Positions 5 to 42,428 of a stretch of 43,115 bases of DNA are shown here, one piece after another. How positions within the stretch are numbered: position 1 is the stretch's first letter; each line of letters opens with the position of its first letter. The notes beneath the pieces were generated by a model that was not told the DNA's origin, did no database searches, and saw nothing but the letters and a program-made list of their open reading frames with translations. A program made the position numbers and the translations under genes. This DNA is from an uncultured Rikenellaceae bacterium (GTDB lineage Bacteria > Bacteroidota > Bacteroidia > Bacteroidales > VadinHA17): the NCBI GenBank assembly GCA_964607105.1, contig CAZSJH010000002.1, positions 1-43,115 of the forward strand, in the 5' to 3' direction.

Positions 5-1711
5 TTGCTTTTTCGTTCATATGCTGGTATTCTGAGGCATACAACATTAACTGATATAACTCTGTTATTCGCAGTCACTACCTCATCCCTATTGACACTT
101 ATCGGATTTTCTATAATTAGCAGGCTATCAGGCTGGGGTTATTATCTGACTATATCTATATCCGTAATACTGATTCATTATGTTTCTATAACTGTCTTCT
201 TATTTTTTTCAAGGCTTTTTGTTAAGATGATCTTTCGTTTTGCAACAATGACCCGTAGGACCACTAAAAAAGTCCTTATTTACGGTGCTGGAGAGATGGG
301 TTTTGTTGTTAAACGGGTCCTTTTAAGTGATCCCTTGTCTGCTTTTGATGTAGTGGGTTTCATAGATGATAATAAGAAACTGCAGGGTAAAAAGATCAAC
401 GGCTTGCCCGTTTTTAGTTCTGAAGTGCTCAATACAAATTTCCTTTACAAGCATAAGATTAGCACTCTCATAATTGCCATAAAAAACGTAAAACCGGGAA
501 GGAAAAGTGAAATTTTACGGGCCGCAATAGATCTTGGGCTTGAAATACTTGAAACACCTGCAATTGATAAATGGCTGGGGGGTAAGCTCAATGTTGAGCA
601 GCTTCAAAATGTCAAACTTGAAGATCTCCTAGGCAGAGATCCAATAAGGTTGAACTTGGATCTTATCAGGCAGGGACTGAATGACAAAACTATACTTGTT
701 ACAGGAGCAGCCGGATCAATAGGTTCAGAAATAGTACGACAGCTGGCGATGTTCAATATTAAGAAAGCTATTCTTGTTGATTATGCAGAAACACCAATGT
801 TTCATCTTGATAATGAGTTGCGAAAACAGTTTAGTCACATTCAGTTTGATTTAATACTGGCGGATATAACAAATGCTAAAAAAATGGATCTCATTTTCAG
901 AGAGCATAAACCTGAAATTGTTTTCCATGCAGCAGCATATAAACATGTTCCGCTGATGGAAGCCAATCCTCATGAAGCTTTGAGGGTTAATGTTGGAGGC
1001 ACAAAACTAATCACTGATCTTTCAGTAAAATATGAGGTCAAGAAATTTGTCATGATCTCGACGGATAAATCGGTTAATCCTGTCAATATTATGGGTACAT
1101 CCAAGCGTCTTTGTGAGATGCTTTTGCAATCCAAGGCGCAGGATAAAGAGATTAATACACAATTTGTAATTACACGTTTTGGCAATGTCCTTGGCTCAAA
1201 TGGTTCAGTTATACCAATATTTGAAAAACAGATAAAGGATGGAGGCCCGGTTACAGTTACTCACCCCGAGGTAACCAGGTATTTCATGACAATCCCGGAA
1301 GCATGTGAGCTGGTACTTGAAGCGGGTTTTATGGGGAAAGGGAATGAGATCTTCGTTTTTGATATGGGTGATCCTGTTCCTATCGTCGACTTGGCATATC
1401 AGATGATACAACTTTCCGGACTGGTACCTGAGAGGGATATTGAAGTAATATTCACTGGTTTGCGACCCGGTGAAAAACTATATGAGGAATTATTAACAAA
1501 AGAAGAAAATACCCTTCCCACCCATCACCCTAAGATAAAAATTGCCAGGGTTACTGAAATAGACATATTAACTTTTAACGAAAAGATTGATAAATTATTG
1601 AACAATATTTACAGCTTATCAAATAGTGGAATAATAAATTCATTTAAGGATCTGGTACCTGAATATAAACCTACCACCACTGAGAAGTGGTCACTACCTA
1701 AGCCCATTTGA
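5..1711 (+). CDS. capD: CapD/PglF/WbpM-family membrane-anchored NAD(P)-dependent nucleotide-sugar (UDP-HexNAc) 4,6-dehydratase; the 5' end probably lies upstream of the window
   Basis: The frame is open to the left window edge. Hydrophobic N-terminal helices are followed by two Rossmann motifs (YGAGEMG, VTGAAGSIGSE) and the SDR catalytic AAYKHVP motif typical of the family. Confidence 0.85.
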   Translation: MLFRSYAGILRHTTLTDITLLFAVTTSSLLTLIGFSIISRLSGWGYYLTISISVILIHYVSITVFLFFSRLFVKMIFRFATMTRRTTKKVLIYGAGEMGFVVKRVLLSDPLSAFDVVGFIDDNKKLQGKKINGLPVFSSEVLNTNFLYKHKISTLIIAIKNVKPGRKSEILRAAIDLGLEILETPAIDKWLGGKLNVEQLQNVKLEDLLGRDPIRLNLDLIRQGLNDKTILVTGAAGSIGSEIVRQLAMFNIKKAILVDYAETPMFHLDNELRKQFSHIQFDLILADITNAKKMDLIFREHKPEIVFHAAAYKHVPLMEANPHEALRVNVGGTKLITDLSVKYEVKKFVMISTDKSVNPVNIMGTSKRLCEMLLQSKAQDKEINTQFVITRFGNVLGSNGSVIPIFEKQIKDGGPVTVTHPEVTRYFMTIPEACELVLEAGFMGKGNEIFVFDMGDPVPIVDLAYQMIQLSGLVPERDIEVIFTGLRPGEKLYEELLTKEENTLPTHHPKIKIARVTEIDILTFNEKIDKLLNNIYSLSNSGIINSFKDLVPEYKPTTTEKWSLPKPI

Positions 1712-1784
1712 ATTCATTATCTGGCAGAAGGTAAAAATTTTACCTGCTAATATGGATGCAATCATAAAAGATGATAACTAAGCG

Positions 1785-3242
1785 GTGAGTCTGAAACAAA
1801 AGACAGTTAATGGACTAACCTGGAATTTCGCAGGTAGTGCTTTTGAAAAGATAATTAGCTTTGTTGTTGGTATTATTCTGGCCAGGTTACTAACCCCAAG
1901 AGAATATGGCTTAGTTGGCATGGTGACTATTTTCCTCGTTTTAACACAACCATTTATAAATAGTGGTTTCAGTCAGGCTCTTATAAGAAAGCAGGATTGC
2001 GATCAGCATGATTTTTCAACAGTTTTTTACTTTAATTTCTTTGTTGGTCTTTTACTCTATATCATTTTATATTTTTTTGCTCCTTATATAAGTATATTTT
2101 TCAAAGAGCCTCAACTTACCAAACTTACAAGAGTAATCGGGACTATCGTCATAATTGATGCTGCTTCTCTCATTCAAACAACCATACTGACCAAAGAGAT
2201 CAATTTCAAGAAACAAAACCAGATAAATATTGCATCAATTTCTGTATCAGGAGTAATTGGGATATATCTTGCATATAAAGGTTTTGGCGTATGGAGCCTG
2301 GTATACAGATCGATATCACAGCACATTCTAAGATCTGCCTTATTATGGATAAGTAACAGATGGATGCCGTCAAGGGTATTTAGTATGAGGAGTTTTAAAG
2401 AAATGTTTGGCTTTGGATCAAATCTCCTATTTACCGCAATAATCGATAAGCTTTACTATAATATATACAATCTTGTTATTGCCAAGTTTTTTTCTGCCAA
2501 GGAACTGGGACTTTACTCCAGGGCTGATATGTTTAAAAGTCTAGCTTCTACGCAAATAAGTGAAATAATTGCAGTGGTGGCCTTCCCGGCATTGTCTCGG
2601 CTCCAAAATGATCCTGATCGTTTATCTGATAATTATAAGAAGATACTTAACAGTACAATGTTCATAGTTTTCGTTCTATTATTAATCATTGCTGCAAGTG
2701 CCGAATCATTAGTGTTAACACTTATAGGTGAAAAGTGGATTGAATCAGTGATATATCTTCAGTTGCTTTGCTTTGTAGGGATTTTTTACCCTCTAAATGC
2801 TATGGCCAGAACCTTGCTCTACGTATTTGGGAAAGGAAAACTGACTCTTAAGTTGGAAATATTAACCAAGCTGTTTATGATCCCTGCAGTGCTTACAGGA
2901 ATATTTTTGGGCATTAAGGCTATGATCGTAGCAATGATTATTGTAAGTGCTGCCGAATATATTTTAAAAGCCTTTTATTCCGGCAGACTAATAGGATATT
3001 CAGTTGTGAGCCAGTTCAAAGATTTGTCAGCGTCATTCTTTATAGCTATATCCATAGGGGCTTTTCTTCTTCTTTTTGATCATTTTATCACCTGTAGTAC
3101 TGCCTTAAAATTTATTTTGCAGATTGTTCTCGGTACTTTTCTTACAATTGGTATTTCTGAAATTTTTAAGATTCGCGAATATATGTTTATTAAAGTAACA
3201 CTAATAGACCTAGTTAAAGGGCTCCTGAAAAAAGAATCATAA
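1785..3242 (+). CDS. wzx: Wzx-type (MOP superfamily) polysaccharide flippase, copy 1
   Basis: 485 aa multi-TM protein with the typical N-terminus (GLTWNFAGS...ILARLLTPREYGLVGM...QPFINSGFSQALIRKQ). GTG is the first possible start, one codon after an in-frame TAA. It is a paralog of 5742..7217. Confidence 0.8.
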   Translation: MSLKQKTVNGLTWNFAGSAFEKIISFVVGIILARLLTPREYGLVGMVTIFLVLTQPFINSGFSQALIRKQDCDQHDFSTVFYFNFFVGLLLYIILYFFAPYISIFFKEPQLTKLTRVIGTIVIIDAASLIQTTILTKEINFKKQNQINIASISVSGVIGIYLAYKGFGVWSLVYRSISQHILRSALLWISNRWMPSRVFSMRSFKEMFGFGSNLLFTAIIDKLYYNIYNLVIAKFFSAKELGLYSRADMFKSLASTQISEIIAVVAFPALSRLQNDPDRLSDNYKKILNSTMFIVFVLLLIIAASAESLVLTLIGEKWIESVIYLQLLCFVGIFYPLNAMARTLLYVFGKGKLTLKLEILTKLFMIPAVLTGIFLGIKAMIVAMIIVSAAEYILKAFYSGRLIGYSVVSQFKDLSASFFIAISIGAFLLLFDHFITCSTALKFILQIVLGTFLTIGISEIFKIREYMFIKVTLIDLVKGLLKKES

Positions 3243-3333
3243 TAAACTAATGACACTTGCCCAGAGACCAAAAGACATTGTTTAACTCAAGTGTTATTAT
3301 GTTAGCTTAGGTCGACTGAGACTCGAATAAAAA

Positions 3334-5019
3334 ATGAGAATGAAACAGGAAGTATCATCGATACATATTTACTCAAAGTTAAATCCCAAAAAGATAAATA
3401 TTGGGGCATTCAATACTTATATCAGTGGTTTACCTCTTTTGATGGAAAAAAGGGGGTTGGGAGATGATTGGATTAGAAAATTAAATAAGGAGCTTATACA
3501 TAAACATATTAAGTCTGATAATGTATTAAAAGATTTGCTTAAATCTACCACCGGTTCCTTTTCATTAATTTTTTGGGATGGACAGGATTATATACTTGCT
3601 TCTGATATTATTAGAAGTTACCCACTTTTTTATGGATTTCATAAGGACAGGGTATTCATTACGGATAATCTAGATGAGTTCCAGAAAGAGAACGGTAGTT
3701 TTCAGATTGATAATAATAAACTTGTAGAGTTCTGCAGCACTGGCTGTGTGTATAATAATGGTACAGTATATCAGGATGTATATAGCCTCCAGGCTGGTGA
3801 GATAGTTACAATACGAAATAATAGTATAATTTCAGAACGATACTTCGAACTAATACCCAAAGAGTCTATTATCTTTAGGAATCTTTCTGATCTTGAGTAT
3901 ATAAAAAAATTCGATAATATACTCATGCTAATCTTCTCACGCTTGATCGGCAACCATCCTGATGTAAACAGGTGGGTAATTCCCCTCAGTGGAGGTCATG
4001 ATTCAAGGCTAGTAGTCAATTATCTTTATAGATTGGGAATAAAAAATGTTGTTTGTTTTTCCTATGGTACCCCAAAGAATGAACAATCTGTTATAAGTAA
4101 GCAAGTTGCTGAATCTTTAGGTTATGATTGGCATTTTGTCGAATATACAGATGAAAAATGGAAAGCACTTCATACAAATGGGGTTTTCAGTAACTATATT
4201 TCGTATGCGTGGAATGGTGTTTCAACACCTCATCTTCAGGACTTTCTGGCTGTTTATGAATTAAAGGAAAAAAGTATAATACTCGAAGGAGATATATTTG
4301 TCCCAGGCCATACAGTTGTTCCCGAAGGTGCATTTCATGCGAATACCCAGAAATTAGAAACTAGAGAAGAAGCCCTGGAATATGTTTTTACAAGGAATAT
4401 ATTGACTAACAGAGTATTAAAGGAGGGATCTTCGGTATATAATGAACTTCAGCTTATGTATGACAAGTCAAATACCAGCCCGAAAAACTTCATGGGATAT
4501 TGTGACTGGCAGGAGAGGCAATCGAAGTTTATTTCAAACAGCATTAAAGTATATGAGTTTTTTGGGTTTAAAACATTACAACCTATGTGGGATAGAGAGT
4601 GGGTCGATATCTGGATGAAGATTCCTGCAGAAAGGAGAGTGAATAGGGCCCTCCAGTTTTTAATGGAAGAACGAGGTGGATTAGTAAGTCAGTTACTACA
4701 TATTCCATATGCTGACGATGATAAAAAACCGGGTAAGTTTTCTCTGAAATCAATTTTGAAAAGAGTATTACCCAGTTTTGCAATAGTCCTATTACTACGT
4801 TTAACGAGGAGCTGTGTTGTCCTGGATGAAGCTATGAACATGCCATATGCAGTTGGAGATGTCACTGTGAAAAAATTTCTTGAGCCGATAGAAGACTTCC
4901 CGGAAAAGGTTATTTACTATTATAAAAATATAATGCCTCGTTACACATATCAGGTCGAGTCTAATATGTTGACAGTTCTTTATATTGTCAGAAGGCTTCA
5001 TGATAGGGTGAGAACTTGA
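3334..5019 (+). CDS. Asparagine-synthetase-B-like PP-loop ATP pyrophosphatase lacking the N-terminal Cys nucleophile, copy 1
   Basis: PP-loop PLSGGHDSRLV. The upstream region aligns by eye with the distal half of the glutaminase domain of the bona fide AsnB at 40434..42428 (SFSLIFWDGQDYILASDIIRSYPLFYG vs QFAFAIWDKQKEELFIARDRVGIRPLFYN; VYSLQAGEIVTI vs IYELSPGHYLIY). There is no MCG start. It is a paralog of 8407..10089. Confidence 0.7.
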   Translation: MRMKQEVSSIHIYSKLNPKKINIGAFNTYISGLPLLMEKRGLGDDWIRKLNKELIHKHIKSDNVLKDLLKSTTGSFSLIFWDGQDYILASDIIRSYPLFYGFHKDRVFITDNLDEFQKENGSFQIDNNKLVEFCSTGCVYNNGTVYQDVYSLQAGEIVTIRNNSIISERYFELIPKESIIFRNLSDLEYIKKFDNILMLIFSRLIGNHPDVNRWVIPLSGGHDSRLVVNYLYRLGIKNVVCFSYGTPKNEQSVISKQVAESLGYDWHFVEYTDEKWKALHTNGVFSNYISYAWNGVSTPHLQDFLAVYELKEKSIILEGDIFVPGHTVVPEGAFHANTQKLETREEALEYVFTRNILTNRVLKEGSSVYNELQLMYDKSNTSPKNFMGYCDWQERQSKFISNSIKVYEFFGFKTLQPMWDREWVDIWMKIPAERRVNRALQFLMEERGGLVSQLLHIPYADDDKKPGKFSLKSILKRVLPSFAIVLLLRLTRSCVVLDEAMNMPYAVGDVTVKKFLEPIEDFPEKVIYYYKNIMPRYTYQVESNMLTVLYIVRRLHDRVRT

Positions 5020-5110
5020 TAAAAAGATACCTTTAGTTACTTTTTTGAGATTTAGCCAGTAACAATCTAAAGGAGATAAAATTATTCCAGGAGATTTTAA
5101 TATCCAACTT

Positions 5111-5725
5111 ATGAATAAACGAAAAATATTAATTGTCCCTGTGATATTCTATCCCCAGAAAGCACTACTGTCTTACCGTACACCCGAAAGTGCACAATAA
5201 TATGACCAACAGTGATATAATGTGGTTTTGTATATACCATTAAGGGGATCTGATTATTTCTGTTGCATCTCCTTTCACTATACACTGGGGTGTTGAAAGA
5301 AGCAGAACAAAGAATCATAAGATAGCACATACTTGCATTGCTGATCCCTATAAGGACAATCAGGCAGACAGTATGAGAAAGCCATTCTATTTTAAGTATA
5401 TTGAAAAATTGGTCTCCAGGGAATGTGGATATCTGGCTATTACATTTAAAGCTTTAAGAAATAAATTTTACCTTGAGTTCCACAATATAATAGTTATTAT
5501 TCAACAGGTTTACAAAATACAAGATATAAAGCGTGCAGAAAGACTAAATAATAGTTTACCTACTTTTGTATTTTCAGGTTCTACTATTCCCGGTATGCGT
5601 CATCTTGATTTATTTTTTAGAATATGAAAAGATGTTAATCACGAATTCAATTCTGTGTATATACCAGCCAGCTTAACTATTTTTAAACCTCATGTGGAAT
5701 ATTGTGGAGATAGTCTGGTGATCAG
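5111..5725 (+). pseudogene. Decayed copy of the GT-B glycosyltransferase encoded at 10182..11306
   Basis: Hand translation gives MNKRKILIVPVIFYPQKALLSYRTPES then a stop (intact copy: MDRKKILIVSATFYPENSPRSFRTTEL). Further fragments follow in other frames: VVLYIPLRGSDY, ISVASPFTIHWGV...KNHKIA, RKPFYFKYIEKLVSRECGYL...LPTFVFSGSTIPGMRHLDLFF and GDSLVIS. There is an internal deletion and a 3' truncation just before wzx copy 2. Confidence 0.8.
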
Positions 5726-5741
5726 CTAAATAAAATCTGAT

Positions 5742-7217
5742 TTGAGCCTTAAACATAAAACAGTAAGTGGATTAACGTGGAGTTTTGCAGGTGATTTCAT
5801 AGAGAAGATTATTGTCTTTGTTGTTGGCATTATACTGGCACGATTACTGACTCCTAGAGAATATGGGCTTGTTGGCATGGTTACAATCTTTATTGTCTTA
5901 ACCCAGCCCTTTATTAATAGCGGTTTTAGCCAGGCATTAATAAGGAAGCAGAATTGCACTAAAACTGATTTTTCAACTGTTTTTTACTTCAATTTCCTTG
6001 TCGGTGTGGTTTTTTATGTCTTACTCTTTTTTGCTGCTCCTTTGATCAGTAGGTTTTTCAAAGAACCACAGTTAACAGTACTGACCAGAGTAATAGGTAT
6101 AATAATTATTATAGATGCAGCCACGCTTATCCAAACTACTATACTTACAAAGAATATTGACTTTAAAAAACAAACCCAGATTCTTGTAATCTCATCTCTG
6201 CTTTCAGGCGGACTTGGAATTTTTCTAGCTTACTCTGGTTTTGGAGTATGGAGCCTGGTGTATAAAACAATAGCTCAACATACCATTAGGTCTGCTTTAT
6301 TATGGTTTATGAACAGGTGGTTACCAGCCAGGACATTCAGTAAAACAAGTTTTAAAGAGATGTTTGGCTTTGGATCAAATCTATTAATAAGTGCAATACT
6401 CGATAAGGTATATTACAATATTTATAATCTGATTATAGCGAAATTCTTTTCAGCAAGGGAACTTGGTTTATATTCCCGGGCTGACATGTTTAAGAATATG
6501 GCTTCAACAAATATCAGCAATATAATCGGCAGGGTCTCATTTCCTGTTCTGTCGAACCTTCAGGATGATCCGGAGCGTTTAAGTGCCAATTATAAGAAGA
6601 TCCTTACGAATACGATGTTTATAACCTTTATCTTAATGATCAGCATCGCTGCAGCAGCTAAACCACTAATTCTGACACTTATTGGTGAAAAATGGGCTGA
6701 TGCTATTGTATATCTACAACTGCTGTGTTTCGTAGGAATTTTTTATCCGCTGCATGCCATGACCAGGACTTTGCTGTATGTTTATGGAAAAAGCAGACTC
6801 TTCCTCAATCTGCAGATAGTTTCCAAACTATTGACAATCCCGGCTATAATGGTTGGGATATTTTATGGCATAAAGGCAATGATAATCGGAATGATAGCTG
6901 CCGGTGCCATTGAATACTTCATGAAAGCATATTATTCGGGGAAAATAGCAGGTTATTCGATTAAGGAACAGATAAAGGATTTGTTACCTATTGTTTTCCT
7001 TGCGCTTTTTATCGGAACTATACTGTCACTTATTCTTTATTTTATGAAAGCAAGCCCGGTAATAATATTGACTCTCCAGGTAATTATGGGTATTGGATTA
7101 ACTATAAGTATCTCTCATTTGTTCAAAATCCCTGAGTACATCTTTATAAAGTCAATACTAAGAGAAAAGCTGGGCGATATACTTAATAACCGGAGAAATA
7201 AATTTAATCAAGACTAA
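5742..7217 (+). CDS. wzx: Wzx-type (MOP superfamily) polysaccharide flippase, copy 2
   Basis: 491 aa and colinear with 1785..3242 over the whole length, with long identical blocks such as VVGIILARLLTPREYGLVGMVTIF and LQLLCFVGIFYPL. TTG is the first possible start after an in-frame TAA. Confidence 0.8.
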   Translation: MSLKHKTVSGLTWSFAGDFIEKIIVFVVGIILARLLTPREYGLVGMVTIFIVLTQPFINSGFSQALIRKQNCTKTDFSTVFYFNFLVGVVFYVLLFFAAPLISRFFKEPQLTVLTRVIGIIIIIDAATLIQTTILTKNIDFKKQTQILVISSLLSGGLGIFLAYSGFGVWSLVYKTIAQHTIRSALLWFMNRWLPARTFSKTSFKEMFGFGSNLLISAILDKVYYNIYNLIIAKFFSARELGLYSRADMFKNMASTNISNIIGRVSFPVLSNLQDDPERLSANYKKILTNTMFITFILMISIAAAAKPLILTLIGEKWADAIVYLQLLCFVGIFYPLHAMTRTLLYVYGKSRLFLNLQIVSKLLTIPAIMVGIFYGIKAMIIGMIAAGAIEYFMKAYYSGKIAGYSIKEQIKDLLPIVFLALFIGTILSLILYFMKASPVIILTLQVIMGIGLTISISHLFKIPEYIFIKSILREKLGDILNNRRNKFNQD

Positions 7218-7240
7218 TATGGTGAAAAATTGATCTCTTT

Positions 7241-8398
7241 ATGAAAGCAAAAACTGGACAGGAAAGTCCTGTTTCTCTATTCATATGTGGGGATATACTC
7301 AATAAAGAAAAAACTGAAGGATTGGTTTGTTCTCCGGAAATGGAGCAACTTGTTTCTTCAGCTGATTATTCAATATGTAATTTTGAGGCTCCTGTTTCAG
7401 GATTTGGAAAGGAACAGGATACCCCGGGAGGTCATCATAATCAAAGGCCGGAGACAATACCGGGTCTCAGGATACAGGGGTTTAATATGCTATTATTAGC
7501 CAATAATCACATGTTGGATTTTGGTAAACCGGCCCTGGAAGCCACTTTGAAACTAGCCGAAGAAAATGGACTTGATACAATAGGGGCCGGCTCAGATGAA
7601 GAATTTGCTTATCAGCCTGTTGTTAAACTAATAAAAGGCTTAAAACTTGGATTTATAAATGCCTGTGAGGCACAATTCGGTGTTCTTGACTATATGACCG
7701 GATCAAACAAGGCTGGTTATGCATGGATAAACCATTCTGTAATAGATAAGAATATACTATTGCTCAAAAAGAAGTGTGATTTTGTTATTGTGTTTTCACA
7801 TGCAGGATTAGAGGATTTCCCCATTCCGCAAAAGGAATGGAGGATAAGATACAAACATTTATGTGATCTGGGTGCAGATGTAGTCATTGGTTCCCATCCC
7901 CATGTTCCACAGGGTTATGAGCATTATGGAGAATCATTAATTTTCTATAGCCTTGGTAATTTTTATTTTGATACACGTCGTTACAGGCAAAAAGAAAATT
8001 CTTCTTTTTCAGTTTGGCTTGAATTGAAAAAAGGAGGGAAACCTTCTTTCAGACCTGTATATCATTATAAGCACGATGGTTTTACGGACTTTGCACCAGA
8101 GAATAAAAGAGTTGATATAGATAAACTTAATAGTCTCCTGGGTGATGCCTATGAGACTGAGCACGATAAGATGAGCATGACCGTTTATAACAGGATTAAG
8201 AATAAATTGACAATCTCCTTGTTCCCTCCTATTCCGGTTGATGGAAAGATAAAAACTTTTTTCAGGATGTTATTATCGTTGATCATTAAGAAAAAAATCA
8301 GCTATCGGGATCTTCATCAACTAATCTTATTTAGAAATGATTCCCTTTATTTTGCGATACGTCATGCCCTGGAACTAAAGGTACAAAATAGAAGATAA
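7241..8398 (+). CDS. CapA/PGA_cap-family metallophosphatase-fold protein (family of the poly-gamma-glutamate capsule protein CapA/PgsA)
   Basis: Ordered family motifs are present: ICGD, CNFEAP, LANNHMLDFG, VFSHAGLE, GSHPHVPQG, YSLGNFYFD. Confidence 0.75.
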   Translation: MKAKTGQESPVSLFICGDILNKEKTEGLVCSPEMEQLVSSADYSICNFEAPVSGFGKEQDTPGGHHNQRPETIPGLRIQGFNMLLLANNHMLDFGKPALEATLKLAEENGLDTIGAGSDEEFAYQPVVKLIKGLKLGFINACEAQFGVLDYMTGSNKAGYAWINHSVIDKNILLLKKKCDFVIVFSHAGLEDFPIPQKEWRIRYKHLCDLGADVVIGSHPHVPQGYEHYGESLIFYSLGNFYFDTRRYRQKENSSFSVWLELKKGGKPSFRPVYHYKHDGFTDFAPENKRVDIDKLNSLLGDAYETEHDKMSMTVYNRIKNKLTISLFPPIPVDGKIKTFFRMLLSLIIKKKISYRDLHQLILFRNDSLYFAIRHALELKVQNRR

Positions 8399-8406
8399 TT
8401 TTTAAG

Positions 8407-10089
8407 ATGGAAAAAACCGGACCGGTAAATCTTTATTCATTATCAGGGCTATTGGAAAAAAAATCCGAATTAAGTGATCTTTATGTTCTGGGAGATCCAA
8501 CTTTTATTAACCAAGCACCTAATACCGATGAATGGATTAAAGAAATTGGCAGTCTCTTTGAATCTGAAGAGAATAGTATCTCTACCCGTTTGACTGAAGA
8601 ATTAAGAAATACCCGGGGCTTATTTTCATTGATATTGAAAAAGAGAAATGAATATATCATTGTAAGTGATTTAATACGAAGTTATCCAATATTTTACGGA
8701 TTTCATAACGATAGATTCTTCATAACTGATAAACTTGAGAACTTCCAGAGGGAGCATGGACGCTTTGAGATAGATTATGATAAACTTGAGGAGTATATTT
8801 CCTGTGGTCTGGTTTTAGGAAATGGAACACTATATAAAAATGTCTATGGTTTACAGGCTGGGGAGATTGTGACGATAAATGATGATATAATTAGCTCAAA
8901 TAGATATTTTAAATATATACCTGCCGAGAATCCTGCTCACTTCAAGAACCTTGATGAATTCACTGATGCTTTTGATAAGGTATTGATTTCTGTTTTTTCT
9001 TATATCTTAAAGAAAAATTCGAATGTTAACAGGTGGATAGTACCTTTAAGTGGAGGTCACGATTCCCGATTAATTGTTAATTACCTCTATCGGCTAGGGA
9101 TTAAAAATGTACTATGTTTTACTTATGGCCTGGTAAATAATGAACAGGCAAGAATAAGTAAAAGGGTCGCCGATACTTTAGGTTATGAGTGGCATTTCGT
9201 AGAGTATACAGAACAAAAATGGCAAAAGCTGCATGATAAAGGGCTAATAGATGCCTTTATAAATTATTCCTTCAACGGTGTATCAATTCCCCATCTTCAG
9301 GACTTTCTCGCTATTTATGAATTGAAAGAAAAGAATATTATCACAGATGATGATATTATCATTCCCGGGCATTCTGCCGTAACCGCGAGATTTGATCAGA
9401 ACAATTTTGACTTTTTAGACTATAATGACGTAGTAAGAATAGCTTATTATCATGAGACAGTAGCCAGCAACATCGATATTCTTAATCAACAGGCATTAAA
9501 GGATTTATGCCTTATTGGTGAAATTTCAGATATAGGTCCGGGAAACTTCCGAGCTTTTATTAACTGGCAGGAAAGACAATCAAAATTTACTGTTAACAGT
9601 ATTCAGGCTTATGATTTTTTTGGTTTTAAGAGCCAGCTTCCTTTCTGGGATAGGCTTATGGTTGATTTCTGGTTAGATTATCCTGCAAATCAAAGGGCAG
9701 GGAGGCAAGTACTGTATCAGGCGGAAGAGAATGGACTGCTTGTTGATGAATTGAAGCAAGTTCCATTTGCCGGACAAAAGAAAGTGTCAGAGAATACTGC
9801 CCTTAAAAGCAGAATAAAAAAAATAATACCTGACTTTGTACTTGTTAAAATATTGCGTTTAACAGGTTATAAAGCTAAATTGGATGAAGCAATGAACCAG
9901 GTTTATGCTTTGAAAGCAGGATCTGTACTCGAGCTCCTGGACCCTGTAGATGATTTCCCTCAATCCACACGGTCATATTTTGATGCTAATTTGCATAAAT
10001 TTACATATCAGGTCGACTCTAACTTGATTACAAGGCTTTATACAGTCAGAAAGCTTCTGGATAAAAAAAAAAGGATTAACGGGATATAA
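8407..10089 (+). CDS. Asparagine-synthetase-B-like PP-loop ATP pyrophosphatase lacking the N-terminal Cys nucleophile, copy 2
   Basis: PP-loop PLSGGHDSRLIVNYLYRLGIKNV, nearly identical to copy 1. The LFSLILKK..VSDLIRSYPIFYGFHNDRFFITD and VYGLQAGEIVTI blocks are shared. There is no Cys2. Confidence 0.7.
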   Translation: MEKTGPVNLYSLSGLLEKKSELSDLYVLGDPTFINQAPNTDEWIKEIGSLFESEENSISTRLTEELRNTRGLFSLILKKRNEYIIVSDLIRSYPIFYGFHNDRFFITDKLENFQREHGRFEIDYDKLEEYISCGLVLGNGTLYKNVYGLQAGEIVTINDDIISSNRYFKYIPAENPAHFKNLDEFTDAFDKVLISVFSYILKKNSNVNRWIVPLSGGHDSRLIVNYLYRLGIKNVLCFTYGLVNNEQARISKRVADTLGYEWHFVEYTEQKWQKLHDKGLIDAFINYSFNGVSIPHLQDFLAIYELKEKNIITDDDIIIPGHSAVTARFDQNNFDFLDYNDVVRIAYYHETVASNIDILNQQALKDLCLIGEISDIGPGNFRAFINWQERQSKFTVNSIQAYDFFGFKSQLPFWDRLMVDFWLDYPANQRAGRQVLYQAEENGLLVDELKQVPFAGQKKVSENTALKSRIKKIIPDFVLVKILRLTGYKAKLDEAMNQVYALKAGSVLELLDPVDDFPQSTRSYFDANLHKFTYQVDSNLITRLYTVRKLLDKKKRINGI

Positions 10090-10181
10090 ACTTATTACTG
10101 CAATTATAACCTCAGAAGTGAAAACAATACCATTACCTTATACTAAAAGTAGAATAAACCAATAATTAACTCAGACCCGGA

Positions 10182-11306
10182 GTGGATAGAAAAAAAATCC
10201 TGATCGTCTCAGCAACTTTTTACCCTGAAAACTCACCACGTTCTTTTCGAACAACAGAGTTGGTAAAAGAAATGTCCCGGCAGGGACATGAAGTGCATAT
10301 TTATATTCCATTCAGGGGAAATGATTACAGCGAATTTGCCAGTGAACATAATCTGACAATAAAAGACCTTGGTAAACTAAGGTTTAAAAGCATTGAGCTT
10401 AAGGGCAGAAGGCTGGGGATGTATTTAAGGCGCATAGTAAGAAGAAGTATGACATTATTACTGGAGTACCCATATATTGAATTAATGTTTAAGGTCTCAA
10501 AGCATCTGAGGAAAGAGGATAATTATGATATGTTAATATCCATCGCAGTACCTTTTTCTGTACACTGGGGAGTGGCAAAGGCCCGGAGGAAGAACCACCG
10601 GATAGCTTCTATTTGGGTTGCTGACTGCGGTGATCCCTTTATGGGCAAACAGACTGATAGTTTCCAACGGCCTTTCTATTTTAAATATGTTGAAAAATGG
10701 TTCTCCCGTAAATGCGATTACCTTTCAGTACCGTTTGATGCCTTGAAAGATAAGTTTTACCCGGAGTTTAGTGATAAAATGCTTGTTATACCACAGGGTT
10801 TTAAGGTAGAAGACATTAAACTGGCTGACAAAGTCGATAACCCGGTACCTACATTTGCATTTTCAGGCTCAATAATTCCAGGGATACGTGATCTTAATTT
10901 GTTCTTTGAAATCCTGAAAGAAATAAATCGCAAGTTCAAGTTCTACATTTTTACCAGCCAGCCTGAATATTTTATGTCATTCAAGAATTATTTCGGAGAT
11001 AATCTGGAGATCAGCGGATATATTCCCAGATTGAAATTACTATATGAATTAAGCAAGTGTGATTTCCTGGTGAATGTTGATACTATCTATGACGGACAGT
11101 CATTAAATGCAGCCTTCCCAAGTAAACTTATTGACTATTCATTCACAAAAAGACCTATACTCAATATTTGCAGTAATTCTATAGATAAGGAAGTCGTTTT
11201 ACAATTCTTGGACGGAAACTATATAAATGAACGTAAAGTTGATTCTGATAAATACAGAATAGAGAATATTGTAGTAAGTTTTCTTGAACTTATTAATTCA
11301 GATTGA
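10182..11306 (+). CDS. GT-B fold glycosyltransferase (GT4-like)
   Basis: The N-terminus KILIVSATFYPENSPRSFRTTELVKEMSRQGHEVHIY is typical of the GT4 N-domain, and the C-terminal FPSKLIDYSFTKRPILN resembles the GT-B acceptor/donor loop. GTG start. This is the intact counterpart of the pseudogene at 5111..5725. Confidence 0.6.
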   Translation: MDRKKILIVSATFYPENSPRSFRTTELVKEMSRQGHEVHIYIPFRGNDYSEFASEHNLTIKDLGKLRFKSIELKGRRLGMYLRRIVRRSMTLLLEYPYIELMFKVSKHLRKEDNYDMLISIAVPFSVHWGVAKARRKNHRIASIWVADCGDPFMGKQTDSFQRPFYFKYVEKWFSRKCDYLSVPFDALKDKFYPEFSDKMLVIPQGFKVEDIKLADKVDNPVPTFAFSGSIIPGIRDLNLFFEILKEINRKFKFYIFTSQPEYFMSFKNYFGDNLEISGYIPRLKLLYELSKCDFLVNVDTIYDGQSLNAAFPSKLIDYSFTKRPILNICSNSIDKEVVLQFLDGNYINERKVDSDKYRIENIVVSFLELINSD

Positions 11307-11333
11307 TATCCGGTAACTATACTAATAAGTAAT

Positions 11334-12623
11334 ATGGATTTTAAAGAGAATATTGCAGAGTCTAAAATGTTTACTGCCACTGAAAGATGGAAAGAGGGAT
11401 TTAATTACTTCATAAGCTTCTTTCTATGGCCTTTTGGAGTTACCCTTGCAGCTTTAAGACACTGGGACAGACCATGGTCAAAAAATGTATTTTGGCTGTT
11501 TTGTATTTTTCTTGGCTTTACTTTTATAATTGCAGAAGAAGGCGGTGCTGATTCGGACAGATATGCCAGGTTATTTATTCATTATGCTCACTCCAACCTC
11601 AGCCTTTCAGAACTATGGAGTTCCTTCTACAGTGAGACCTCCAGTTATGTTGATATTTTTTCCCCACTGGTGACCTACCTGGTTTCCCGTTTAACTGACA
11701 ATCCAATATTCCTTTTTACCGTTTTTGCTTTTATTTTTGGATACTTCTTCTCAAGAAATATATGGTATGTCCTTGAAAGGCTTGATGGTAAAACCACGCT
11801 TATAGTATTTATTTATATTCTAACCTTTGCATTGATAAATCCCATATGGAATATCAATGGTTTCCGTTATAATGTTGCTGCACAGGTATTTCTGTTCGGG
11901 GCACTTCCTTATGTCCTGGAAGGTGATCGTAAAAGTTTAATCTGGTCGGGTGTTTCAATTTTTTTCCATTTTTCCTTCATGTTTCCTGTTGCAATTCTTC
12001 TTATATACATCATATTGAAGAACAGGCTCAATATCTACTTTGTGTTTTTTATAATCTCAGCCTTTATTAAAGAAATTGATCTTATGTATGTGCGGTCAGC
12101 CTTGCTGTTTCTGCCGGATATTTTTCATAATAAAGTAATAAATTATACCAACCCGGAGTATGCTGAAGCTTTGAGTAATTCAAGTCAAATGCTAAACTGG
12201 TATGTACCTTTATCAATTAATTCAATAAAATGGGTTGTATATGGTACCATGGTATATATCTATTTTTTTGGCAGGCACTTTCTTAAGGAAAGGAAGGGCT
12301 TAAATTCGTTGATGAGTTTTTCCCTATTACTATATGCTTGTGCCAATATTGTCAGCCTGATTCCAATCATGGGCCGTTTCATAATGGTATCAAACACTTT
12401 TATGTATGCCTTTATAATTTTGTTTATTACATCCTTCCCGAATATTAAGGGCATGAAATTAATTAATGTATTATCACTACCTTTTATATTACTGTCCTGT
12501 ATAGTCAGCATAAGAATTGGGATGGATTACTATGGCTTAATGGCAGTATTGGGAAATCCATTTATTGCTGCAGTATATTCAGATACTACCCCTATGATAA
12601 ACAGTATTAAACGGTTATTATAG
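11334..12623 (+). CDS. Polytopic membrane protein, candidate Wzy-type (EpsG-like) repeat-unit polymerase
   Basis: 429 aa with roughly 10 or more hydrophobic helices and no soluble domain. It sits in a locus with Wzx and a BY-kinase but no other polymerase candidate. The call rests on context and topology only. Confidence 0.5.
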   Translation: MDFKENIAESKMFTATERWKEGFNYFISFFLWPFGVTLAALRHWDRPWSKNVFWLFCIFLGFTFIIAEEGGADSDRYARLFIHYAHSNLSLSELWSSFYSETSSYVDIFSPLVTYLVSRLTDNPIFLFTVFAFIFGYFFSRNIWYVLERLDGKTTLIVFIYILTFALINPIWNINGFRYNVAAQVFLFGALPYVLEGDRKSLIWSGVSIFFHFSFMFPVAILLIYIILKNRLNIYFVFFIISAFIKEIDLMYVRSALLFLPDIFHNKVINYTNPEYAEALSNSSQMLNWYVPLSINSIKWVVYGTMVYIYFFGRHFLKERKGLNSLMSFSLLLYACANIVSLIPIMGRFIMVSNTFMYAFIILFITSFPNIKGMKLINVLSLPFILLSCIVSIRIGMDYYGLMAVLGNPFIAAVYSDTTPMINSIKRLL

Positions 12624-12665
12624 TAATGAACAAGGCAATCAGGGGTTCTTTACACCAGATACATT

Positions 12666-13811
12666 TTGGCACTTAAACCTTATTTAGGACGTATATATAC
12701 AAATTTACGAGGCTGGAGGACTAAGCGTAAAATTGTAGTAATCGAGTCTGATGACTGGGGAAGTATAAGAATGCCTTCAAGGGAAGTATATGAACAATGC
12801 CTGGATGCAGGTTATCCCGTTGATAATGTATCCTATGATCGGTATGATTCACTCCTGAGCCAGTCTGACCTGGAATTACTTTTTGAATTGCTGACAAAAT
12901 ACCGTGATAAAAACGGTAACCATCCTGCCATAACTGCCAATTGTGTTGTTGCAAATCCTGATTTTGAAAAAATCAGGAGGGATAATTTTCAGAAATATCA
13001 TTATGAATTAATTACTGATACTTTCAAAAGATATCCTGCACATAAAAACAACTTAAGTATGTGGAAAGAAGGAGTACAAAAAAAAATTTTCCTTCCGCAG
13101 TTTCACGCAAGAGAGCATTTGAATGTTAGTTTATTCATGAAGTACCTTCAGGATGGCAACAGGGATGTCCATTTTGGTTTTGAAAATGGAATGCCGGGTA
13201 TCATTCTTAACGGGCCCAGAGGCACAGGTAATTATTTTGTTGAAGCAAGCCACTATGAATCAGTATCAGATAAGGAAGATAAACTAAATATTTATATTGA
13301 GGGTCTCGACTTGTTTGAAGGGCTTTTTGGATACAGATCTGAATCAATAATACCTCCTAACTACACATGGAGTCCAGACTTTGATGCTGCCGTGCTCAAT
13401 AAGGGTGTAAGAATATTTCAGGGCTTACGAAAAATGAAGGAGCCGGTTCCAGGTGATGGTTATATATATCATTCGTCTTTCATCGGTAAAAGGAATTCGC
13501 TGGGGCAGGTTTATCTTGTAAGGAATGCTTTATTTGAACCCTCAATGTTCAATCTCGGTGTTAAAAATCATGTGGATCGGTGTTTAAAAGAAATATCCAT
13601 TGCCTTTGCAATGCAAAAACCGGCCATAATTACCAGTCACCGTATTAATTATTCAGGTTTTATAGACTGCAGTAACCGAGATAGAAATCTTAAAATGCTT
13701 GACGAGTTGTTATCGAAAATGTTGAAACAGTGGCCACGGATTGAGTTTATGACATCAGATCAACTGGGGCTTTTGATAAGTAATGAGAATCACCAAACAA
13801 TAATTACTTAA
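12666..13811 (+). CDS. Divergent CE4/NodB-like (deacetylase-fold) protein, paralog A
   Basis: VVIESDDWGS (Asp-Asp motif), PQFHAREHLN (HxxxH) and ITSHRINYSG. It is colinear with 25785..26906. TTG start. The family assignment is tentative. Confidence 0.4.
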   Translation: MALKPYLGRIYTNLRGWRTKRKIVVIESDDWGSIRMPSREVYEQCLDAGYPVDNVSYDRYDSLLSQSDLELLFELLTKYRDKNGNHPAITANCVVANPDFEKIRRDNFQKYHYELITDTFKRYPAHKNNLSMWKEGVQKKIFLPQFHAREHLNVSLFMKYLQDGNRDVHFGFENGMPGIILNGPRGTGNYFVEASHYESVSDKEDKLNIYIEGLDLFEGLFGYRSESIIPPNYTWSPDFDAAVLNKGVRIFQGLRKMKEPVPGDGYIYHSSFIGKRNSLGQVYLVRNALFEPSMFNLGVKNHVDRCLKEISIAFAMQKPAIITSHRINYSGFIDCSNRDRNLKMLDELLSKMLKQWPRIEFMTSDQLGLLISNENHQTIIT

Positions 13812-22632: not shown

Positions 22633-22638
22633 TTTTGG

Positions 22639-39063: not shown

Positions 39064-39094
39064 AATGTTTATTTTTCTTATATTATGTCTTAAT

Positions 39095-39180
39095 GAGGCT
39101 CAAAGCCTTTCGTCTTTAATGGTGTTTTTATTTATAATGTTACTGTAAAAACTTCTTTTCAGGCGCAAAGCCTTGCGCCT
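39095..39180. repeat. GC-rich palindromic element: one perfect copy AGGCGCAAAGCCTTGCGCCT (39161..39180) and one degenerate copy GAGGCTCAAAGCCTTTCGTCT (39095..39115)
   Basis: 8-bp stem AGGCGCAA/TTGCGCCT with a 4-nt loop. The identical 20-mer recurs at 40319..40338. Confidence 0.8.
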
Positions 39181-39193
39181 CTACAATTACCTC

Positions 39194-39235: not shown

Positions 39236-39279
39236 TACTTTATTATATCTTCGTCCGCCGACTTTGATCTGATAAAATC

Positions 39280-40269: not shown

Positions 40270-40318
40270 GATTTCATATCTTTCAAATTCAGCATAAATT
40301 TCAAATTTTATTTTTGTG

Positions 40319-40433: not shown

Positions 40434-42428
40434 TCACTTCGTGCGACCTTCCCCTTTCAAAGGGGCATCCTCAATAATCCTTAGATTTTTAAGTTCAGGC
40501 CCTTCATATTCTGCATTGCATCCCTGGATGAACTGGTAATGCAGCAGATGGGTGGATATTACTGCTGCCAGTACCATATTATCCATTTCGGATACATTTC
40601 CTGTTTTTTTTATTTTATTTAGTATAGCAGAAATGGACTCAAAGTCAAAAACGCCTGCATTCCTTGTATAGCTTTCAGACAACATGTCTCTGGCATAAAC
40701 AGGAGTATTTTCGTTGAGGAATACGCTGCTGATAGGAGCACGGTAAGGTTGCTTGGGTCTTTTGATTATGCTTTCGGGTATCCTGTTTTCCATCAGTTTC
40801 TTCAGTAAGAATTTTTCATTCAATCCCCTCAATTTATATTTTGCAGGCAGCCCGGCACAAAACTCGATAAGCCTGTGATCAAGGAAAGGATATCTTCCCT
40901 CGACGGAGTTTGCCATTGCCATCCTGTCTCCCTGAGATGAAAGGAGGTACCCCGACATAAATACAGTTGTCTCAATCCACTGGGCTTTAGCGAGTGAATC
41001 CCATGTGTCATAAGCAGCAGGAAGTTTGTTTGCTAGATTATCAAAAGGGTCGTAGTTTTTAAGATCTTCTTTGATATCAACCGAGAAATGTTTCTTAATA
41101 TGGTTTGAATTGTTCCATCTCAATAAGTGGGAGTAAAACGGGTTATTTACATCCTCAAGCTTATATCCAAAAAACATTTTAAGGATGTTAGGGCTTGCAT
41201 TTCTAAGGTGAGGTATATCAGGGTAGATTCTTTTCAACAGAAGGGGCCTCATTGCTGAGTCAGGTTGTCTGGCCCAGAATCTCCTAATTTCCGCCTCCCT
41301 GAAAATATCGTAACCGGCAAGCATTTCGTCTGACCCTTCACCTGTTATCACTACCTTAATATCATTGTTCCGTACCAGCCCGGATAGTATCATCATTGGT
41401 GTCGGGGCAGTTCTTGTAACAGGTGTCTCAGAATGCCAAACCACCTTCGGAAAATTAATTGAAATATCACTGGCAGAACAATTTATGGATTTATGGTTCG
41501 TATCGAGGAATTTTACAGCCTCCTCCTGGTAGCTGCTTTCGTCGAAGACCTTGTCTTCAAATCCAATAGAAAAGGTGTTCAATACACCTGGTTCAATTTC
41601 CTTAATATATGCTACAGTGGCGCTGGAGTCGATACCTCCGCTCAGATAAGCTGCTACCTCTACATCTGCTCTTAACCTTAACCTGACGGCACTGATTAAT
41701 AACTCATTTAATCTTTCCCTGGCATCATCAAACGAAAGATTATCGTACCTGCTGCCAAAACTTAATTCCCAGTATTTTTTAACTTTCAGCCCGTTTCGCT
41801 TATAAATAAGGTAATGTCCGGGAGAGAGTTCATATATATTCCTGAAGGCTGTATCAGGACTTATTGTGGTCCAGAAGGTATAGATCTGTGACAGGCTTTC
41901 AGTATTGAACTCCCGCGAAACAGATTTTTGTTGAAAAATGGCTTTTATTTCAGAAGCAAATGAAAATACTCCATCAGTTATATTATAGAATAATGGCCTG
42001 ATACCAACTCTGTCTCGGGCAATAAAGAGTTCTTCTTTTTGTTTATCCCAGATAGCAAATGCAAACTGACCATTTAGTAACTGGAGGCAATTTTTCCCAT
42101 AAGCAGCATAAAGCTTAACCAGTACCTCTGTATCTGACTGGGTTTTAAAAGAGTCACCTTTTTTTTCCAGCTCTGAGCGGAGTTCTTTATAATTAAAGAT
42201 TTCACCGTTAAATACTATCCAGAATCTACCTGTGGAATCTGATAAAGGTTGCTGTCCACCAGTAATGTCAATTATAGATAGCCGTACATTCCCTATGCTT
42301 GCGTAAGGTGAATGGTAAATTCCGCTTTCATCGGGTCCTCGAAAACTGATAGACTGGAGCATTGATTTAATCATAACTGCGCTGTTTGCACTGCCCCTAA
42401 AGTCTAGTATACCGGCTATTCCGCACAT
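40434..42428 (-). CDS. asnB: Asparagine synthase (glutamine-hydrolysing) family amidotransferase, complete two-domain form (WbpS-type context)
   Basis: MCGIAGI N-terminal nucleophile Cys2, RGPDESG, NGEIFNY, ARDRVGIRPLFY, and the PP-loop AAYLSGGIDSS. Confidence 0.9.
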   Translation of the reverse strand: MCGIAGILDFRGSANSAVMIKSMLQSISFRGPDESGIYHSPYASIGNVRLSIIDITGGQQPLSDSTGRFWIVFNGEIFNYKELRSELEKKGDSFKTQSDTEVLVKLYAAYGKNCLQLLNGQFAFAIWDKQKEELFIARDRVGIRPLFYNITDGVFSFASEIKAIFQQKSVSREFNTESLSQIYTFWTTISPDTAFRNIYELSPGHYLIYKRNGLKVKKYWELSFGSRYDNLSFDDARERLNELLISAVRLRLRADVEVAAYLSGGIDSSATVAYIKEIEPGVLNTFSIGFEDKVFDESSYQEEAVKFLDTNHKSINCSASDISINFPKVVWHSETPVTRTAPTPMMILSGLVRNNDIKVVITGEGSDEMLAGYDIFREAEIRRFWARQPDSAMRPLLLKRIYPDIPHLRNASPNILKMFFGYKLEDVNNPFYSHLLRWNNSNHIKKHFSVDIKEDLKNYDPFDNLANKLPAAYDTWDSLAKAQWIETTVFMSGYLLSSQGDRMAMANSVEGRYPFLDHRLIEFCAGLPAKYKLRGLNEKFLLKKLMENRIPESIIKRPKQPYRAPISSVFLNENTPVYARDMLSESYTRNAGVFDFESISAILNKIKKTGNVSEMDNMVLAAVISTHLLHYQFIQGCNAEYEGPELKNLRIIEDAPLKGEGRTK

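Follow-up and report, generated by a model that had tools for sequence, protein, structure and literature searches.

The 43,115-nucleotide (nt) stretch of DNA from an uncultured Rikenellaceae bacterium analyzed here (contig CAZSJH010000002.1; referred to as the window) carries two genes for paralogous PP-loop proteins, designated AsnL1 and AsnL2. Judging from sequence comparisons and a structure model, both are glutaminase-less relatives of the asparagine synthetase AsnB with the two-domain fold of the AsnB superfamily. They are new, divergent members of a family with one genetically characterized representative, PGN_1234 of Porphyromonas gingivalis. We consider it probable that both proteins act in the cytoplasm as ATP-dependent carboxylate-amidating enzymes like PGN_1234 and convert a uronic acid to a uronamide beside a flippase. 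The genes on which the analysis centers are as follows (window coordinates, strand, and product).

1785..3242, plus: wzx1, MOP/Wzx flippase of 485 amino acids (aa), the partner of AsnL1 (Polysacc_synt_3, 297 bits)
3334..5019, plus: AsnL1 (P0001), Cys-less AsnB-like PP-loop enzyme of the PGN_1234 type, 561 aa
5111..5727, plus: decayed remnant of a GT4-type glycosyltransferase, marking the junction between two modules (tblastn with the glycosyltransferase at 10182-11306, E = 2e-53)
5742..7217, plus: wzx2, MOP/Wzx flippase of 491 aa, 67% identical to wzx1
7241..8398, plus: CapA/PGA_cap-family protein of 385 aa (PF09587, 171 bits; weak NCBIfam MslH-epimerase match)
8407..10089, plus: AsnL2 (P0002), second Cys-less AsnB-like PP-loop enzyme, 560 aa
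10182..11306, plus: intact GT4-type glycosyltransferase, the usual 3′ neighbor of AsnL in the clade of the window
40434..42428, minus: canonical glutamine-dependent AsnB of 664 aa with an MCGIAGI start (TIGR01536, 510 bits; GATase_7 and GATase_6)

The window is a surface-polysaccharide locus of the Bacteroidota type with a GC content of 35–40%, and nearly all genes between positions 5 and 34633 lie on the plus strand. Its start is the contig start, and the readable sequence begins at pglF. The open reading frames (ORFs) of AsnL1 and AsnL2 and the complete AsnB described in the initial annotation were confirmed; the length of 560 aa given there for both paralogs holds for AsnL2 and not for AsnL1.

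Sequence, predicted fold, and active site

AsnL1 and AsnL2 are 46% identical over 531 aa. The PP-loop sequence PLSGGHDSRL, correctly read at first sight as being kept in both, spans residues 217–226 of AsnL1 (nt 3982–4011) and 213–222 of AsnL2 (nt 9043–9072), and a P-G-H motif is encoded at nt 4303–4311 and 9364–9372, respectively. The N-termini (MRMKQE and MEKTGP) have no Met-Cys start, and the absence of the Cys2 nucleophile that had been noticed is not a matter of start assignment: a Cys2 start by upstream extension is impossible because in-frame stop codons are located 2 codons 5′ of the ATG at 3334 (TAA) and 6 codons 5′ of the ATG at 8407 (TAG).

The AsnB of the window was used as an internal reference. 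Residues 66–245 of AsnL aligned with AsnB residues 114–292 with 96–99% probability in hhalign, in agreement with the proposal that the distal part of the AsnB N-domain is kept, and the probability for the AsnL and AsnB profiles was 99.2%. The AsnL start corresponds to approximately residue 47 of AsnB, and about 46 residues of the N-terminal nucleophile (Ntn) domain, forming its first strand-helix unit, are gone. Because the protein begins at about AsnB residue 47, the loss is larger than that of Cys2 alone. The glutamine-site positions of AsnB (Arg49, Asn74, Glu76, and Asp98 in E. coli numbering) are unconserved, and the first invariant AsnL residue is D88. The expected combination of lost Ntn residues and a kept adenylation site is thus indicated by the alignment with AsnB. 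Scores on the standard models are low, at 24 and 19 bits for Pfam Asn_synthase around the PP-loop (AsnL1 and AsnL2, respectively) and 37.5 and 30.8 bits for TIGR01536, whose cut-off is 267.

An AlphaFold (AF2) model of AsnL2 built on 41 homologs had a predicted local distance difference test score (pLDDT) of 89.6 and a predicted template modeling score (pTM) of 0.90. The best matches of the model among Protein Data Bank (PDB) entries in Foldseek were beta-lactam synthetase, carbapenam synthetase (CarA), human ASNS, TsnB9, and E. coli AsnB, with E values of 1e-14 to 1e-17 (~1e-16 for beta-lactam synthetase and CarA) over ~550 columns at a template modeling (TM) score of ~0.5. By sequence profile, the nearest solved protein was CarA (E = 5e-4, or 4e-10 with a broader profile); a phmmer search of the PDB sequences with AsnL2 gave no match, and only profiles reached CarA. 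The two synthetases that had been named as glutaminase-less AsnB relatives are thus the nearest solved relatives of AsnL.

Motif conservation was evaluated in an alignment of 113 family members from bacteria and archaea, including two fusion proteins. S215, G217, D219, S220, R221, G241, and G321 are invariant (113/113); the first five are the residues of the SGGxDSR motif, and the PP-loop is intact and free of the loss of key residues that would be the sign of a pseudo-enzyme. P-G-[H/Y] is present in 107 members (His322 in 94 and Tyr in 13), and the long helix following P-G-H carries E389 (94/113), K393 (103/113), N397 (104/113), and Y402 (105/113). The global hhalign alignment placed "IIIPGHS" of AsnL on "VVITGEGSDE" of AsnB, which brings His322 to the position of Glu348 in the S-G-E-G-S-D-E motif. 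This catalytic Glu has no counterpart in AsnL1 and AsnL2, both of which have His there. The S-G-Y-G site holding the catalytic Tyr of beta-lactam synthetase and CarA is presumably equivalent to the His322 position, and E389 may match the Glu of the Tyr-Glu dyad in these enzymes. Overall, the adenylation site is retained in AsnL1 and AsnL2 with a family-specific variant at the catalytic-base position, and from their residues the proteins do not look like dead enzymes. The orthologs of AsnL2 are 77% and 70% identical to it, with ratios of nonsynonymous to synonymous substitution rates (dN/dS) of 0.18–0.24, and the AsnL1 ortholog in locus L003 is 75% identical (dN/dS 0.18); in comparison with these orthologs, selection on both copies has been purifying.

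Relationship to PGN_1234 of Porphyromonas gingivalis

PGN_1234 belongs to the porR(wbpE)-porS(wzx)-PGN_1234 segment, and was named WbpS and assigned to the Wbp/Vim pathway (Veith et al., 2020, mBio, PMC7468200). In a deletion mutant (E71–L542), the linking sugar of type IX secretion cargo stays a uronic acid of 199 Da instead of becoming a uronamide of 198 Da (PMC7468200). Given the loss of the uronamide on deletion, the most likely function of the AsnL proteins is therefore amidation of a uronic acid carboxylate. The initial annotation had suggested a sugar or amino-acid carboxylate as the substrate and an amine other than glutamine-derived ammonia as the partner. The genetics of PGN_1234 speak for a uronate, and no support was obtained for an amino-acid carboxylate; the proposed amine is not supported as it stands, since PGN_1234 is needed for a primary uronamide (a difference of 1 Da; PMC7468200), which points to ammonia.

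The reported sequence identity of PGN_1234 is 17% to P. aeruginosa WbpS and 15% to E. coli AsnB (Table S3 of PMC7468200), and these low values would fit a remote family. The available portions of the article make no mention of the missing glutaminase, and the name WbpS hides this unusual feature of the protein. The complementation primer ATGAAAATAGTCTCAGACTTCACT encodes MKIVSDFT, and the other primer encodes the C-terminus IDRPLPL followed by the stop (Table S2 of PMC7468200). As the primer-encoded start is MKIVSDFT, PGN_1234 is without Cys2. An exact search with this 24-mer matched two metagenome contigs. The gene at L098:3191–4819 (minus strand) encodes 542 aa starting with MKIVSDFT and ending with IDRPLPL, with Glu71 and Leu542 as in the published deletion; it overlaps the 5′ MOP flippase gene (porS, 435 aa), which itself follows a DegT aminotransferase gene. 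No named Porphyromonas protein was returned by a homolog search seeded with a Parabacteroides member.

PGN_1234 contains the motifs PLSGGFDSR, LPGHQGDD, and W-E-N-I-P-K-Y-M-L-N-S, and thus has SGGxDSR, PGH, and W-E-x3-K-x3-N-S in common with the AsnL family. It matched the family profile with 100% probability in hhalign (E = 2e-46, 432 columns) and scored 265 bits on the family hidden Markov model (HMM), on which canonical AsnBs reach only 46–75 bits, and on these sequence criteria it is a clear family member. The match of PGN_1234 to the true AsnB of the window is only E = 5e-6, over the N-domain remnant. Like AsnL1 and AsnL2, it is of the same length class, Cys-less, and encoded 3′ of a Wzx gene, directly so in PGN_1234 and AsnL1 and with capA in between for AsnL2. 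Its nearest relatives in our set, at 28–30% identity, belong to the second main clade (L071, L056, L039, and Polaribacter). The two systems differ in that PorS has no match to the window Wzx proteins at a BLASTP E value of 1e-5, and in that P. gingivalis has one PGN_1234 copy and no CapA-like insert, whereas the window has two AsnLs and one capA.

Genomic association with Wzx flippases

AsnL1 directly follows wzx1, and AsnL2 follows wzx2 with only the PGA_cap gene (7241–8398) between them, as had been described. Gene neighborhoods were surveyed in 79 loci (L numbers) from species-representative genomes, whose ORFs were clustered and the frequent clusters annotated; the upstream neighbor could be assessed in 69 loci. 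A MOP/Wzx flippase gene lies directly 5′ on the same strand in 29 of these, and the order flippase-CapA-AsnL occurs in 5 more (34/69; binomial p ~4e-12). When any flippase is encoded within 10 kb (46 loci), it is immediately 5′ of AsnL or separated from it by capA alone in 34. The intergenic distances are mostly −17 to +36 nt.

The order wzx-AsnL is kept across phyla. Firmicutes have the order flippase-AsnL-UDP-ManNAc dehydrogenase-2-epimerase. In Parabacteroides and other Tannerellaceae (L026, L028, L031, L032, and L034), Chitinophaga/Sphingobacteriales (L074 and L079), and Polaribacter (L057, L058, and L067), the wzx-AsnL pair forms an islet without glycosyltransferases. P-G-Tyr in place of P-G-His was observed in the capA-adjoining members at L058 9842–11434 (Polaribacter) and L074 9842–11452 (Chitinophaga), which are located in islets of 3–4 genes amid housekeeping genes with no glycosyltransferase nearby. 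In the archaeal loci L096 and L097, no flippase adjoins AsnL. The former (4976–13649; Methanofollis ethanolicus) has two AsnL-family genes around an uncharacterized 394-aa gene, with GT4 and FemAB/Acetyltransf_6-like genes nearby.

The link is also seen within single polypeptides, as two natural fusion proteins with an N-terminal Wzx and a C-terminal AsnL part were found.

L088, 8001-11282: fusion P0342, 1,093 aa (NCBI assembly)
L089, 974-4108: fusion P0162, 1,044 aa (low-coverage contig, to be taken with caution)

Both are encoded in glycan loci, their AsnL parts are 38% identical, and the two fusions are independent. The link between Wzx and AsnL that was suspected from the window is real, given the gene order across phyla and the two fusions. 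L088 also contains genes for Bac_transf, heparinase II/III-like, CapK_C, and ATPgrasp_ST proteins, resembling the window. No conserved glutaminase partner appeared in the neighborhoods of the surveyed loci.

The order wzx-capA-asnL of the second module also occurs in L074, L079, L057, L058, L067, L084, and L086. The insert is optional, since closely related Polaribacter AsnLs are found without and with capA between wzx and asnL (L048 and L067, respectively), and the capA-upstream state changed at least 4 times on the AsnL tree. The CapA-like protein of the window has no signal peptide and no transmembrane segment (hydropathy maximum, 1.21), and its dN/dS relative to the ortholog is 0.17. Its only sequence relatives in the PDB are 8gq9, 8gqb, and 8ith, which we take to be structures of MslH. 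These relatives fit the NCBIfam MslH-epimerase match and the description of MslH as a CapA homolog that epimerizes a C-terminal residue (PMC8179263).

Family size and distribution

In an HMMER scan of the family model over 1.84 billion representatives, the number of clusters (50% identity) was at least 2,194 with a limit of E ≤ 1e-30 and rose to 5,194 when this was relaxed to E ≤ 1e-10. The family occurs in Bacteroidota, Balneolota, Firmicutes, Proteobacteria, Planctomycetota, Cloacimonadota, methanogens, and haloarchaea, and its members are publicly annotated as "asparagine synthase-related" or "asparagine synthase C-terminal domain-containing protein". An MC start is present in only one of 363 members, and that member has no MCG motif, while PGH is present in 321 of the 363. 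The absence of the nucleophilic Cys is a trait of the AsnL family. A protein search of a plasmid collection returned only distant haloarchaeal homologs in uninformative contexts. Two AsnL-family ORFs have long N-terminal extensions without a Pfam match (L040 8522–11470, 982 aa; L059 9239–11584, 781 aa), which may be mis-called starts or fused domains of no recognized family.

Origin of the two modules

The presence of two flippases in one locus is puzzling, and comparison with related loci accounts for it. Window positions 8–5136 (pglF-wzx1-asnL1 and the start of the glycosyltransferase gene) are collinear with L003 at 81% nucleotide identity, and positions 5742–11400 are collinear with L086 (83%) and L084 (80%), in which pglF is directly followed by wzx2-capA-asnL2-GT4-EpsG. 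The decayed glycosyltransferase copy sits between the L003-like and L086-like blocks. Its reading frame is broken by stop codons and a frameshift, an internal part is deleted, and the copy breaks off near residue 278. In single-copy loci, a GT4-type glycosyltransferase follows AsnL, and the remnant is the decayed form of this gene.

On the AsnL tree, AsnL1 groups with the proteins of L003, L001b, and L002a, and AsnL2 with those of L001a and L010. Both sublineages are found in tandem in L001, and AsnL1 and AsnL2 represent two old sublineages. The flippases are 90–92% identical to their respective orthologs (wzx1 90% at the amino-acid level to that of L003, dN/dS 0.08; wzx2 92% to that of L086), with dN/dS of 0.06–0.08 overall, and the AsnLs are 75–77% identical to theirs. 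The pairs wzx1/asnL1 and wzx2/asnL2 were thus inherited as pairs, each AsnL with its own flippase. A recent in situ tandem duplication of AsnL was rejected based on the separate sublineages on the tree and the collinearity with two different locus heads. The window pair is a mosaic of two allelic locus heads, one of the L003 type (wzx1-asnL1-glycosyltransferase) and the other of the L086 type (wzx2-capA-asnL2-glycosyltransferase), with the first glycosyltransferase decayed. The window has two flippase-enzyme modules because these two alternative heads were joined in tandem.

This origin raises the question of whether wzx1-asnL1 is a redundant relic of recombination, only wzx2-capA-asnL2 being functional, which would be compatible with uronate amidation by copy 2. 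In line with such a relic are the pseudogene in module 1 and the finding that each related genome has one of the two modules and that none combines both in the arrangement of the window. However, wzx1 and asnL1 have their full length and lack none of the family-invariant residues, a tandem AsnL pair from the same two sublineages occurs in L001, and dN/dS relative to L003 is 0.18 for asnL1 and 0.08 for wzx1, values that are partly averaged over the time before the join. We regard the relic explanation for copy 1 as rather doubtful.

Proposed reaction and alternative explanations

In the proposed reaction, the PP-loop domain would adenylate the C-6 carboxylate of a hexuronic acid in a glycan precursor with release of pyrophosphate, and a nitrogen nucleophile would then attack the acyl-adenylate to yield the uronamide and AMP. 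P-G-His (His322), at the place of AsnB Glu348, may be the base. The nitrogen would come from free ammonia (most likely) or another donor, because the enzyme has no glutaminase site and no conserved glutaminase partner was seen. The enzyme would work with the Wzx protein encoded upstream; its target would probably be the undecaprenyl-linked unit while this is still at the cytoplasmic face, ahead of flipping. The CapA/MslH-like protein would be an optional extra tailoring enzyme. The substrate would most likely be a 2,3-diacylamido uronic acid from the Wbp pathway of the genome, which contains the following cassette, assigned by Pfam domains only.

L100 (genome contig C15), 3104-9213: WbpE/WbpD/WbpB/WbpA-like cassette (DegT, hexapeptide acetyltransferase, Gfo/Idh/MocA, and UDP-sugar 6-dehydrogenase)

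With this Wbp-like set of four genes in a row, the organism very probably has the means to produce 2,3-diacetamido uronic acids, the class to which the PGN_1234 substrate belongs, and at the level of Pfam domains the genome resembles P. gingivalis in having a WbpA/B/E/D-type pathway. A second UDP-sugar dehydrogenase is encoded on contig C37. The cassette on C15 is followed by genes for two SDR epimerase/dehydratases.

Several points weigh against this assignment. PGN_1234 is only 22% identical to AsnL2 (E = 1e-18) and belongs to the other main clade, so that its specificity may differ, and its position in the pathway was stated as unknown by the authors (PMC7468200). The evidence on function within the AsnL family comes from P. 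gingivalis and is genetic only. The Wbp-like set lies on a contig other than that of the glycan locus, and uronic-acid pathway genes were found within 10 kb in only 20 of the 79 surveyed loci. The complete glutamine-dependent AsnB in the window, which in several relatives lies in the same cassette, calls into question the need for a second amidating enzyme, and the amine or the carboxylate may accordingly be a different one. The occurrence of two or three AsnL-family genes in tandem within one locus also suggests diversified specificity. Finally, the decayed glycosyltransferase shows that module 1 has partly degenerated, and AsnL1 could be on its way out.

Some of these points would equally suit a ligase for amino acids or other amines, which we hold to be unlikely. 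In this case, the uronate would be adenylated and coupled to an amino acid or amino alcohol to give N-(uronoyl)-amino acids, and different paralogs would use different amines. Besides the missing glutaminase site and the coexistence of a complete glutamine-dependent AsnB in the same loci, this explanation is favored by the tandem paralog pairs in L001, L002, L014, and L096, by the frequent neighbors with an amino-acid theme (ATP-grasp ligases, FemAB-like proteins, and MslH-like CapA), and by the occurrence of archaeal members in methanogens. In this connection, the archaeal threonine-attaching gene aglU (MMP1084) may be linked to the AsnL family. The product class is known in Proteus, E. coli O110, Haemophilus type d, and methanogen N-glycans, and there is good documentation of uronic acids carrying amide-linked amino acids (PMC10609480, PMC7685785, and PMC11407970); none of these three articles names an enzyme for the linkage. 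On the other hand, the only AsnL member with data, PGN_1234, gives a primary amide, and no conserved gene supplying or carrying amino acids accompanies the family.

A lactam-forming cyclase, which would close an intramolecular amide within the same sugar or substituent in the manner of beta-lactam synthetase, CarA, and lasso cyclases, is very unlikely. The former two are the best PDB matches by structure and sequence, Tyr replaces His322 in 13 of the 113 members, and CE4-like deacetylases of the locus could expose a free sugar amine. Nevertheless, the TM score is only ~0.5 at an identity of ~14%, the context is that of neither beta-lactams nor peptides that are ribosomally synthesized and then modified post-translationally (RiPPs), and the phenotype of PGN_1234 corresponds to a uronamide (−1 Da) and not to a lactam (−18 Da). 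A catalytically dead structural or regulatory partner of the flippase would suit the tight physical and genetic coupling to Wzx, fusions included, but can practically be dismissed, as the ATP-pyrophosphatase loop and about 20 more residues show little or no variation among bacteria and archaea and the deletion of PGN_1234 alters sugar chemistry with export unblocked.

Uronic acid amidation of the PGN_1234 type can be extended to a more speculative scheme, which we think improbable as a whole. Here, AsnL in a physical complex with Wzx, as suggested by the natural fusion proteins, would use free ammonia to amidate the lipid-linked unit where the flippase opens to the cytoplasm and so couple modification to flipping. 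The inserted CapA/MslH-like protein would be a metal-dependent epimerase removing the proton next to a carboxylate, either at the uronic acid C-5 or at the alpha-carbon of a residue that has been appended. If so, the amidated sugars produced by the two window modules would differ in stereochemistry.

When uronic acids are amidated, bacterial surface glycans are altered in both charge and antigenicity. The antibody epitope of A-LPS, the glycolipid that anchors type IX secretion cargo in P. gingivalis, appears to include the amide (PMC7468200). The present analysis places the P. gingivalis enzyme in a very large bacterial and archaeal family without a glutaminase site that is tied to Wzx. What it adds is that the glutaminase site is absent throughout the family, that the catalytic-base position is held by P-G-His, that fusions with the flippase exist, that the CapA/MslH-like insert is optional, and that the two modules of the window are a mosaic, and it sharpens the questions of the nitrogen source, the stage at which the enzyme acts, and the role of the recurrent insert.

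Other features of the window and related loci

In the clade of the window, the order asnL-GT4-EpsG-CE4-like-(CapA-AsnB-ATP-grasp) recurs, and asnL-GT4a-epsG-CE4-like is found in L001–L003, L010, L013, L017, L020, L025, and L037. The window also encodes CE4-like deacetylases and five ATP-grasp ligases, which by inference might correspond to the steps taken by VimE and VimA in P. gingivalis. A cassette at 20485–25772 contains genes for a fused zinc-ADH and Gfo/Idh/MocA oxidoreductase, a heparinase II/III-like protein, and a GT4-type glycosyltransferase; the heparinase-like gene also adjoins the Wzx-AsnL fusion in L088.

A row of three adenylating or amidating enzymes is encoded on the minus strand at 37609–42428, consisting of the canonical AsnB and the following two proteins.

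37609-39063, minus: AMP-binding (acyl-CoA-ligase-like) protein
39280-40326, minus: NAD-synthase-like PP-loop protein

The AsnB scores 432 bits on TIGR03108 (eps_aminotran_1), under the cut-off. A second canonical Asn_synthase match in the genome (contig C301, 1474–2645, minus strand) is split over adjacent frames (293 and 342 aa) and may reflect either a frameshift in asnB or a fault in the assembly.

A type IX secretion element at 34637–37126 (minus strand) encodes a Por_Secre_tail cargo protein with Pel9A-like beta-helix and Big_7 domains, and in L084 and L086 (1–5160) PorP/SprF and CHU_C proteins are encoded 5′ of pglF. The type IX elements flanking the glycan locus in the window and its relatives give a positional hint of a role in an anchor glycan like the A-LPS of P. 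gingivalis.

Comparison with known systems

WbpS of P. aeruginosa O6 and WbqG of E. coli O121 (TIGR03108) are glutamine-dependent uronic-acid amidotransferases of the AsnB type, which belong to the AsnB superfamily as AsnL does. The reaction proposed for AsnL, from uronic acid to uronamide, is the same, as is the setting in a surface-glycan locus. Both proteins are full-length with the Cys2 nucleophile. In contrast, AsnL1 and AsnL2 have no glutaminase site and score only 28.7 and 25.4 bits on TIGR03108, whose cut-off is 816.9. The AsnB at 40434–42428 is of the full-length WbpS/WbqG type, unlike the AsnLs.

Beta-lactam synthetase (1jgt and 1mbz) and CarA (1q15 and 1q19), the best solved matches to AsnL at ~14% identity and a TM score of ~0.5, are AsnB homologs without glutaminase activity that have a degenerate N-domain and form an amide via acyl-adenylation. 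They act in antibiotic pathways, where they perform intramolecular beta-lactam closure with a Tyr-Glu dyad. AsnL differs in that most members have His at the site of AsnB Glu348 and in that it is encoded in a glycan locus with a flippase and no beta-lactam cluster around it. The distance to the lasso-peptide cyclases is likewise large, as AsnL1 and AsnL2 score 30 and 23 bits on NF033535 (cut-off, 525), and no RiPP genes were found in the AsnL neighborhoods examined.

The amidation of lipid II offers a comparison for the association with Wzx. MurT, which is homologous to Mur ligases, has its glutaminase in a separate subunit (GatD), and AsnB1 and LtsA keep the glutaminase domain; we know of no fusion with, or adjacency to, a flippase gene described for any of these. 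Lipid II amidation by MurT/GatD or by AsnB1/LtsA precedes flipping by MurJ, so that a carboxylate on a lipid-linked precursor is amidated at the cytoplasmic face. By analogy, it may serve as a conceptual parallel to AsnL and Wzx, in which ATP-dependent amidation would likewise be followed by the action of a MOP-family flippase.

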